Source of the DNA: a virus
Lineage: Duplodnaviria; Heunggongvirae; Uroviricota; Caudoviricetes
Direction: 5' to 3' (one strand)
IMG/VR virus record: IMGVR_UViG_2690316345_000016
Length of the DNA: 8,088 nucleotides
The notes below the pieces were generated by a model. That model searched no databases, had not been told where the DNA came from, and was given only the letters and a program-made list of their open reading frames with translations. Shown in pieces: positions 5,023 to 6,845 of this stretch. The stretch's first letter is position 1. Each line of letters begins with the position of its first letter. The position numbers and the translations under genes are program-made.

Positions 5023-6845
5023 ATGGATTAGTAATGGCGTAGTGAAGTTTGTTGATGGCCCGAATATGGGGCTTGACTGGATTCCATTTAGTTTTCAAAA
5101 AGAACCAATGGATATTGCCCAACTGAGAAGTACTAAGAAGATTGTACTTCAGTCGTGTAGCCAATTACTAAAGACTACCGTCCTGCAATCAATTGCATTT
5201 GGTGCTATGGCAAATGATCCCTGTAACTTCGCATTTGGTAGCAGTTCTGAATCAGAAGTGAAAAAGTTCAAAGATGGTAAATTTCTTCCTGCAATTGAAA
5301 CCAGTGAAGTACTCAAACCTTTAGTCACAGATAAAAATGATAAGAATACAGCAAATAATGCGAAACAGACGCAATTAGTTAACGGTACTTTTATATATTG
5401 GCTGAATTTAAATACGCCAGGTAATCTACGTGGGATTACTTGCCGTATGGTGTTACTTTGACGAAGTTAGTAATTGTGAGATTACGAATGAAGGTAATCC
5501 AATAAAATTAGCCGAAGCACGTACCAGTACCTTTGGCGATGATTCACTTGTTGTCGTATCAAGTACTCCACTATATAAAGATGATCTGATTAATGCTGAA
5601 TATAATCTCAGTGATAAACGTCGATACTTTGTTACTCATTCATGCGGTCATGAATATACATTTGAATGGGAACAGGTTGCTTTCACGTTTAAAACATTAG
5701 AAAACGGTAGGGCAATACCTGACAGTACTACAACTCGTTTAATTTGCCCACATTGTCAGGGAGAGGTAGATGAGCATACACGCCATCAGATGATCGATAA
5801 AGGTCGATGGATTGCCACCAGTTCAGATGGTGAGCCGGGTGTAGTGGGTTATCAAATCAGCCGTATGTATTCACCATTAAATACAATTACTGAAATGGTC
5901 AGTAAGTATGCCGATGCTCTTTATAACTTCAATTTACAGACGTTCTATAATAACGAATTGGGATTACCTTATGAGGATGAATATCAGAAAGAATTAGACA
6001 TTCTTCAACTTGAATTATTACGCGAAGATGAATTTAACCTTCATACCATTCCCGAAAGTACTTTAGGCATTACGATAGCCGTAGACCAGCAATTAGATCG
6101 TCTTGAGGCTACGGTACTTGGCTTCGATGAGAAGAACATTTATGTACTTGGTCATGAGTTCTTCTACGGCCACGATTGTACGAAGATTGAAAGCCCGGCA
6201 TGGAAAGAGTTAGATCAATTCTCCAGGCAAAATTTCCGCACGGTAGAAGGGCGTTTAGTACCAACTCTAGCGGTATTCGTGGACAGTTCAAACGGTAATG
6301 CTACAGATACCGTGAAGAAATTCACCGCACGTTGGGCTAAGTACCATCCCATTAAGGGCAGCAGCTCCACTACTGGCGATCTGTTCAGGCAATCCACACA
6401 GGCGGGGTACAAACTCCAGATCCTTAACGTTCATGAGCAGAAGAATACGATACGTAAGCTACTCAATCTCATGCTGTCAGAACAGGCCGATCAAGCCCCT
6501 GTGCAGTTACGCTTTAGTAGTACTCTCCCTTCTGATTACTTTGAACAACTTTCAGCAGAAGAACTAAAACCTGCTGGTGGCAAATTAGTATGGCGATTGA
6601 AGAAAGGGCAGAAACGTAATGAAGCCCTTGATTGTCTGGTCTATGGAATGATCGCGATAGATTACGCTCAAAGTAAATTAGGAACTCAACCTTTCAGAAA
6701 ATTACGCGAACATAAAGCTAAGTCGAACGAAAATACTAAATATAGCAAGGAAGCTATAAATAAAAATGAAGAACCAACACCCACAACGACAAAACCTGCA
6801 AAACGCAGGCGTACAGGTATGGGGAGTAATTGGTTCGGCAAATGA
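4937..6845 (+). pseudogene. Phage terminase large subunit (lambda gpA-like), interrupted by a 1-nt frameshift in a GGG run at 5432-5434
   Basis: Two adjacent ORFs (frame 2, 4937-5461; frame 3, 5430-6845) together align with lambda gpA from memory: ICPHCQGE vs [27 protein letters not shown] vs [34 protein letters not shown] vs RRNEALDCFVYALAA, and [11 protein letters not shown] vs VDVAGYDELAAF across the junction. Removing one G from the run at 5432-5434 would give a continuous reading frame (...[15 protein letters not shown]...). The start is uncertain (ATG 4937, overlapping terS by 86 nt, or ATG 5066). Confidence 0.75.

Follow-up and report, generated by a model that had tools for sequence, protein, structure and literature searches.

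The stretch of DNA analysed here, hereafter the window, is 8,088 nucleotides (nt) long and comes from a tailed virus of the class Caudoviricetes (IMG/VR record IMGVR_UViG_2690316345_000016). Positions 148-7973 are part of the head module of a prophage and are colinear, with three mismatches, with an intact prophage known from E. coli assemblies (L001). The gene order is that of a head module, with the small terminase subunit gene terS upstream of the large subunit gene terL, and connector and portal genes downstream, as identified by PHROG matches and by synteny across the related loci L001-L016. A first-pass annotation of the window described a lambda gpA-like terL lying in two overlapping reading frames, with a one-base insertion relative to intact relatives; Pfam matches and DNA alignment bear out this description. 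The same annotation took the gene to be inactivated. We propose that terL of this prophage lineage is probably expressed by release factor 2 (RF2)-type +1 ribosomal frameshifting at a CUU_UGA_C site, and is a recoded gene and not a pseudogene. We put the probability of this reading at roughly 0.65.

The zero-frame open reading frame (ORF; 4937..5461, 174 amino acids (aa)) matches the Pfam GpA_ATPase model over model positions 14-134 (E 5.6e-16), and its coding part ends in the hydrophobic strand of the Walker B motif. The second frame is open from 5412 to 6845 and matches GpA_ATPase over 134-247 (E 3.7e-25) and GpA_nuclease (E 1.1e-44), thus carrying the remaining ATPase domain and the whole nuclease domain. 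When the two frames are joined at CTT/GAC, the product matches GpA_ATPase (PF05876) over model positions 14-247 with 165.2 bits (E 2.7e-48), and the GpA nuclease model (PF20454) over positions 2-286 of 294 with about 152 bits. The Walker B pattern hhhhDE is continuous only after a +1 shift, MVLL being encoded in frame 0 and DE in the +1 frame, and all homologues read VLLDE at this point.

The start of terL at ATG 4937 is backed by homologues beginning METNK, and places the first 86 nt of the gene (4937-5022) over the 3' end of terS, in another frame. Gene callers begin the N-terminal fragment at M36, which yields 139 aa; hence the 174-aa form is absent from protein records. Public databases hold the two halves separately, the first as a 'phage terminase large subunit family protein' of 139 or 175 aa and the second as a 'terminase gpA endonuclease subunit' of 447-479 aa. 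Such separate deposits occur in E. coli, Klebsiella and Pseudescherichia, and the start codons chosen for the C-terminal part are inconsistent. This suggests a systematic mis-annotation.

Both frames are open over 5412-5461 and any single-base deletion in this interval produces one continuous ORF; homology must therefore place the shift. DNA alignment finds exactly one extra base with respect to intact relatives. The N-terminal fragment matches Pfam through its last residue, L174 (CTT 5456-5458), and the match of the C-terminal fragment starts at F10/D11. Thirteen homologues with 49-94% identity all read NLRGITxRxVLL/DEVSN, which is the translation of frame 0 as far as 5458 and of the +1 frame thereafter, beginning with GAC at 5460. 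In a MAFFT alignment, the one-base gap of five in-frame orthologues falls within TTACTTTGAC (TTAC-TTTGAC). L060, an in-frame sister allele with 97% aa identity (protein type EFA9088685.1), has CGTGGGATTACTTGCCGTATGGTGTTACTT-GACGAA, with the same GGG and one T fewer; at the shift site itself it reads ATGGTGTTACTT-GACGAA. On these alignments the extra base is one of the T's at 5457-5459, about 25 nt 3' of the GGG and inside the Walker B motif.

The first-pass annotation had located the insertion in the G-run at 5432-5434, and had stated that deleting one G restores a continuous gpA-like protein. A single ORF does result from this deletion, but the restored protein scores 154.1 bits against GpA_ATPase, 11 bits worse than the 165.2 bits obtained by deleting a T, and the conserved ITCRMVLL is destroyed, becoming LLAVWCYF. 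The comparison with orthologous terL sequences that had been recommended confirms the one extra base but moves it to the TTT at 5457-5459. The GGG is a normal glycine codon, which four other intact alleles also use for that residue. An extra G is thus ruled out by the Pfam scores, by the homologue alignment and gap position, and by the intact L060, which carries the same CGTGGGATT.

The candidate shift site consists of a CTT leucine codon (5456-5458), the zero-frame stop TGA (5459-5461) and a C at 5462, so that the first +1-frame codon, GAC (5460-5462), encodes the Walker B aspartate. Its context in the mRNA is AUG GUG UUA CUU UGA C, and the slippery CTTT (5456-5459) is identical in all frameshifted alleles. 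The core of the frameshift site of prfB, the gene for RF2, is CTT-TGA-C, combining a slippery codon, a stop and a weak +4 C (PMC12421855). The same prfB-type elements, a slippery CUU_U, an adjacent UGA and a 3' C, are found at 5456-5462. At the position of the Shine-Dalgarno (SD)-like element of prfB, terL presents a weak candidate stimulator, GGTG with its three-nucleotide spacer (Table 1). Every frameshifted allele has GGTG, and the intact sister L060 shares it; the element therefore did not arise along with the shift. We searched for a strong internal Shine-Dalgarno sequence at the site and found GGUG only. A structured RNA stimulator near the site is not supported either: RNAalifold, applied to four frameshifted alleles, predicted 28 pairs with no compensatory change.

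Table 1. Coordinates of terL, its candidate recoding signals and the other features of the window
Feature	Positions	Strand	Basis or remarks
Large terminase gene (terL), both parts	4937-6845	+	
terL part 1 (zero frame), codons 1-174, N-terminal half of ATPase domain	4937..5458	+	ORF list, Pfam, homologue alignment
terL part 2 (+1 frame), DEVSN... to stop 6843-6845, 461 codons	5460..6845	+	Pfam, homologues
GGG, ordinary in-frame Gly codon (NLR-G-ITC)	5432..5434	+	GGN Gly in homologues; L060 shares CGTGGGATT
GGTG (5449-5452) with 3-nt spacer TTA (5453-5455), weak candidate stimulator at prfB SD-like position	5449..5455	+	
Proposed +1 shift site CTT TGA C	5456..5462	+	Sequence; one-base gap in intact orthologues
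Non-prophage left flank	1..147	.	Prophage colinearity begins at 148
HNH endonuclease gene	211-939		Adjoins 263-aa protein of unknown function (phrog_24787)
Small terminase subunit gene (terS)	4441..5022	+	PHROG 57, E 3e-19
Head-tail joining (connector) gene	6858..7388	+	phrog_5774, E 3.6e-11; all related prophages have a syntenic gene of 176 aa
Portal gene, cut by IS1 after the first 201 of 500 codons	7373..7973	+	phrog_21; colinearity with L001 stops at 7973
End of IS1 element (GGTAATGACTCCAACTTATTGATAGTG...)	~7974..8088	.	Thousands of plasmid matches annotated as IS1 transposase at window ends; colinearity break

In the mechanism that we envisage, ribosomes would translate codons 1-174 until CUU (5456-5458) occupies the P site and the A site holds UGA (5459-5461), the RF2-specific stop, with a C after it. 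With UGA-C slow to terminate, a fraction of the peptidyl-tRNA-Leu would slip by +1, from CUU to UUU; GAC (5460-5462) would be decoded next and translation would continue in the +1 frame to 6845. The expected product is a TerL of 635 aa (about 72 kDa), and its junction, ...RMVLL-DEVSN..., would match the Walker B motif that all intact homologues have. A ribosome terminating at the stop would release an N-terminal fragment of 174 aa (19 kDa), presumably useless. We infer both that frameshifting occurs and that it gives enough TerL.

How widespread is this allele? Within the assembly collection, 248 blocks (152 contigs, named E. coli) contain the exact 471-aa C-terminal fragment, and 230 blocks (193 contigs, Klebsiella), finished K. 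pneumoniae chromosomes among them, contain the 139-aa N-terminal fragment with one residue different. Prophages with the frameshift but otherwise undamaged are present, for example, in K. pneumoniae CP128656 and CP115021 and in E. coli GCA_004767955.1. The string GTGTTACTTTGACGAAG is present in all 12 genome loci examined, and in two IMG/VR and two metagenome contigs (L018, L021, L023, L025). The homopolymer sequencing error that the first-pass annotation had offered as its second explanation is thereby excluded, as the same allele recurs in hundreds of independent assemblies; an assembly artefact is ruled out on the same grounds. A degenerate, family-wide pattern run against IMG/VR returned the four frameshifted loci of that database and no further one, and the metagenome scan added L023-L025. 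Another metagenome hit, L022 (VOFK01001915.1, 3490-3525), reads GGC GTA TTT TTT TGA CGA GGT, a run of seven T's followed by GA-C, between open frames of only 35 and 61 codons; judging from these short frames, it looks like an unrelated chance match to the degenerate pattern.

Among 5426 complete RefSeq E. coli genomes, none carries the window terL region (4400-7000 compared) at 80% identity or more, the sole match being at 79%, in strain G3/10. The exact protein is nevertheless found on the 152 contigs named E. coli, so that the host lineage seems to lie outside the finished-genome set for E. coli. A Shigella-like genome would likewise be in keeping with the IS1 and IS2 sequences that flank the prophage.

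Is the pattern of substitution in these alleles that of a dead gene? The E. coli (window) and Klebsiella alleles are both 1909 nt long, with the same extra T and no other insertion or deletion (indel). They differ at 107 of 1908 nt, with a synonymous divergence (dS) of 0.23, a non-synonymous divergence (dN) of 0.019, a dN/dS of 0.08 and no new stops. The ratio is 0.075 upstream of the site and 0.088 downstream, or 0.092 when an apparent recombination patch is left out, and these values match those observed among intact alleles (0.05-0.09). A neutral simulation with 107 random substitutions predicts 76 changed residues and 4.0 new stops, against 24 and 0 observed; the probability of finding no stop is 0.016, and none of 5000 simulations gave so few changed residues. 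The relaxed selection that marks a pseudogene is therefore absent, with a dN/dS of 0.08 and neither stops nor indels over 107 substitutions.

The age of the insertion can be bounded from the flanking substitutions. Over nucleotides 330-1000 of the gene, the frameshifted pair shares eight derived substitutions, against two derived in L060, using seven outgroups. On this evidence the E. coli and Klebsiella alleles form a clade of single origin, and the shared derived substitutions flanking the site mean that the T predates their 5.6% divergence. We also considered a recent transfer of the T on a long recombination tract. No long identical tract exists: the nearest differences between the window and Klebsiella alleles lie 28 nt on each side of the site, at 5431 and 5487.

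The rest of the virion module shows the same constraint. Comparing L001 with its Klebsiella counterpart L013 over ten neighbouring genes (about 9 kb, including terS, connector, portal, protease-capsid and a 917-aa tail protein), we found equal lengths, no stops and dN/dS values of 0.05-0.28, with the exception of a short 130-aa gene (0.55, from only nine differences). Such constraint is to be expected only where virion production continued after the insertion, for which a working terminase is needed.

The same site is encountered in more distant terL backgrounds. In L019 and L020, which encode the protein type of Pseudescherichia vulneris NBRC 102420 and share 83% aa identity with the window allele at saturated dS, the sequence UUG GUG UUR CUU UGA C stands at the corresponding codon, with an open frame on either side (174 + 463 aa). 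These two loci differ from each other by 86 substitutions, with a dS of 0.18, a dN/dS of 0.07 and no stops. A third background, L024, has about 80% nucleotide identity in its N-terminal half; it carries the site and is interrupted further downstream. The homology of L024 to terL is lost after residue 252, the same place where, in L078, an insertion sequence (IS) element of the IS3 family, about 1.3 kb long and with two transposase ORFs (11253-12595), lies inside an in-frame terL, at residue 253. Between the two frameshifted groups, 38 of the 42 nt from the GGG to AGTAA are identical, which ranks this segment in the top 1-2% of windows in these comparisons. Of the seven pairs that include an intact allele, six show nothing unusual over this segment; the seventh (L007 vs L009) reaches 37 of 42. 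Monophyly of all frameshifted alleles was considered and is supported only just upstream of the site and for the E. coli/Klebsiella pair.

Several observations weigh against recoding. First, the putative stimulator is weak: the duplex of GGUG with the 3' tail of 16S rRNA has a free energy of -5.4 kcal/mol, compared with -10.7 for prfB (a value in the top 9% of 12-mers within the gene), and its pairing is displaced by two nucleotides from that of the AGGGGG of prfB (AUGGUG-UUA-CUU vs AGGGGG-TAT). Efficiency could thus be low in hosts with fully active RF2. In favour of recoding, the core can act by itself: with its SD-like stimulator inactivated, the prfB motif in E. coli reporters still gave +1 frameshifting of about 10% when ribosome load was high and about 50% when it was low (PMC6815119). 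Second, under the same pattern IMG/VR holds 81 intact loci against four frameshifted ones, and 25 E. coli contigs carry the in-frame sister allele. The family can therefore do without the shift, which may be tolerated and not selected. Third, the frameshifted groups are not monophyletic on whole-gene distance, the window group having 88-89% identity with in-frame Scandinavium and Buttiauxella alleles and a lower 83% with the Pseudescherichia group, and terL genes are mosaics. Hence the T either arose repeatedly or was carried by recombination, and intact alleles could have contributed some of the low dN/dS through recombination. Under either history, this one frameshift has persisted and others have not: among the 101 homopolymer runs of three bases or more in the gene, recurrence is confined to the frameshift that produces a known shifty stop. 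Fourth, the alleles show no difference within E. coli and zero or one within Klebsiella, as fits clonal inheritance, and the window and many Klebsiella copies carry many IS elements.

The main rival to recoding is genuine loss, which we regard as unlikely but by no means negligible. Under this explanation, the insertion of the T killed the ancestral terL, the dead prophage was inherited vertically in successful clones, and the apparent constraint is mimicked by recombined segments or by recent independent insertions. Near-invariance within each host, evident mosaic patches, IS insertions in the portal, tail or terL genes of many copies, and the large majority of in-frame alleles would all be in keeping with it. 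So would the lack of a close isolated phage in GenBank: we found no DNA match to the window among phages, and the best phage protein has 35% identity. Loss does not readily account for a dN/dS that stays at about 0.08-0.09 upstream and downstream of the site, also when the recombination patch is left out, with neither stops nor indels, nor for the shared derived substitutions that make the T older than the 5.6% divergence. The roughly 9 kb of virion genes equally constrained between the E. coli and Klebsiella prophages, and the same site in a lineage at 83% identity with its own constrained divergence, also speak against it. Besides, a phage with a dead terminase should not move between genera, and a dead gene gives no reason for the only recurring frameshift among 101 homopolymer runs to produce a known shifty stop.

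In the K. pneumoniae loci L010, L011, L016 and L017, IS elements (DDE_Tnp_1, IS3-type) are variously located in the portal gene, the 917-aa tail gene, terL and intergenic regions. These scattered sites indicate that resident copies are still degenerating, each independently of the others. Many of the copies found today are thus inherited clonally and in decay, a common state for prophages.

A two-piece terminase, in which the 174-aa N-terminal fragment and a separately initiated C-terminal fragment (from GTG 5430) together form an active enzyme, appears very improbable. In the window, GTG 5430 does open a 471-aa ORF whose beginning mimics a hydrophobic strand followed by DE, and annotation pipelines do call two proteins. 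This codon is GCG in Klebsiella and GAG in the Pseudescherichia lineage, however, and the alleles of both groups are devoid of ATG, GTG or TTG in the +1 frame upstream of GAC. Independent initiation is rejected on this account, its start codon being specific to the E. coli type; these lineages therefore do not share a means of making a separate C-terminal fragment that includes the acidic residues of Walker B. Moreover, the break lies inside one ATPase domain, within its Walker B strand.

Correction at the RNA level, with RNA polymerase slipping on the T run so that some mRNAs have one U fewer, is more improbable still. Productive transcriptional slippage needs about seven or more A/T residues; the run is of three T's only, and the CUU_UGA_C context points to a ribosomal mechanism. 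In its favour, the extra base does belong to a homopolymer, and recoding through transcriptional realignment is known (PMC5009743). Finally, an artefact or an extra G in the GGG at 5432-5434 has in its favour only the fact that both frames are open over 5412-5461, which lets a G deletion also give one ORF, and can be dismissed in view of the hundreds of assemblies, the GGG of the intact sister, the 11-bit deficit and the destroyed ITCRMVLL.

Whatever the state of terL, the prophage copy in the window is a remnant cut by IS elements, at 148 and 7973. On the right, an IS1 end (GGTAATGACTCC...) sits in the portal gene after codon 201 of 500, and the stop of the portal ORF (7976-7978) falls inside the terminal repeat, which we take to be that of IS1. 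The 500-aa Phage_portal_2 gene is undamaged in L001-L004. On the left, window positions 1 to about 99 correspond to the 3' end of an IS3-family (IS2-like) transposase with a premature end (...LTAASQ*), as judged from its own translation and from plasmid matches; about 50 nt lie between the end of this transposase (~99) and the start of the prophage at 148. Relative to L001, everything 5' of the HNH gene is missing from the window. The first-pass annotation had linked a dead packaging function to the IS-disrupted portal. The portal is indeed cut by IS1, and packaging is dead in the window's own copy because of the IS truncation, not demonstrably because of terL, whose inactivation is made unlikely by purifying selection and by the CUU_UGA_C site.

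Besides the HNH gene, the window has several genes of unknown function. The region 5' of terS is made of variable cargo: the E. coli type has the HNH gene and the gene for the 263-aa protein (211-1731), and the Klebsiella relatives (L010-L017, 3300-9200) have, at the cargo position, genes for a type VI secretion system (T6SS) Hcp-like protein and for DUF1493, DUF8209 and DUF3800 proteins.

If recoding of terL is confirmed, enterobacteria would offer a second natural use of the RF2-type +1 shifty stop besides prfB, this time in a gene essential to a phage. A simple insertion of one base would then be seen to find immediate rescue where it creates CUU_UGA_C by chance. The consequences for annotation would be practical. 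Hundreds of E. coli, Klebsiella and Pseudescherichia genomes list terL as two proteins, or would score the prophage as defective, and prophage-completeness tools would misjudge these elements. As in-frame and frameshifted sister alleles are both present in E. coli, the cost or benefit of recoding is directly measurable.

The shifty stop might even be used, and not just tolerated, as an RF2-dependent checkpoint tying TerL synthesis to termination capacity and ribosome load. We consider this stronger proposal doubtful. Were it true, DNA packaging would be throttled or timed by host physiology through CUU_UGA_C, this would be the first virus to borrow the prfB sensor for the regulation of a morphogenetic enzyme, and the recurrent insertion in different terL backgrounds would reflect positive selection.

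Once its two parts are joined, the terL product resembles the terminases of the lambda gpA type, described by the Pfam GpA_ATPase and GpA_nuclease models, with both domains at full length (165 and 152 bits) and with the expected order terS-terL-connector-portal in the window. It differs from them in its interrupted frame, and sequenced phages are distant, the best phage match having 35% identity. Full-text searches of the literature returned no report of a +1 frameshift in a GpA-type terminase. Terminase recoding is so far proposed only in Streptomyces phages, as bypassing after UUA (PMC5009743, PMC10732093). In phage Hau3 and prophage StrepC.1, as here, the large terminase is split out of frame and translational recoding was put forward; the process, however, is a bypass of a short non-coding gap after a rare UUA, in another terminase family and in actinomycete hosts.

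The closest parallel is prfB itself. Both genes have the identical CUU_UGA_C, in which CUU can re-pair on UUU, the stop is UGA, the +4 base is C and GAC is the first +1 codon; in both, the functional bulk of the protein is encoded in the +1 frame and the zero frame gives a truncated product. In contrast to prfB, terL has GGUG in place of an AGGGGG-type stimulator, and its site is at codon 174 of 635, inside Walker B, whereas the prfB site is at codon 26. As terL encodes a phage packaging ATPase, RF2 dependence would sense a host factor and would not be autoregulatory. The terL site is also restricted to a minority of family members, and its frameshifting is a sequence-based prediction.

The terL case also has features of corrective low-level frameshifting, such as that of herpesvirus thymidine kinase G-run mutants (PMC5009743): a one-base indel in an essential gene is offset by a ribosomal change of frame at or near it, and the unshifted product is useless. 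In terL, however, the indel itself creates a shift site of the high-efficiency type, and it has been inherited through at least 5% divergence and across host genera, unlike a recent escape mutation. Lastly, +1 frameshifts are known in late genes of tailed phages (PMC5009743), where the ribosome also shifts by +1, in one case next to a stop codon. These take place at a proline codon near the 3' end and add a C-terminal extension, so that two useful products are made, whereas in terL the shift would be needed for the only functional product.

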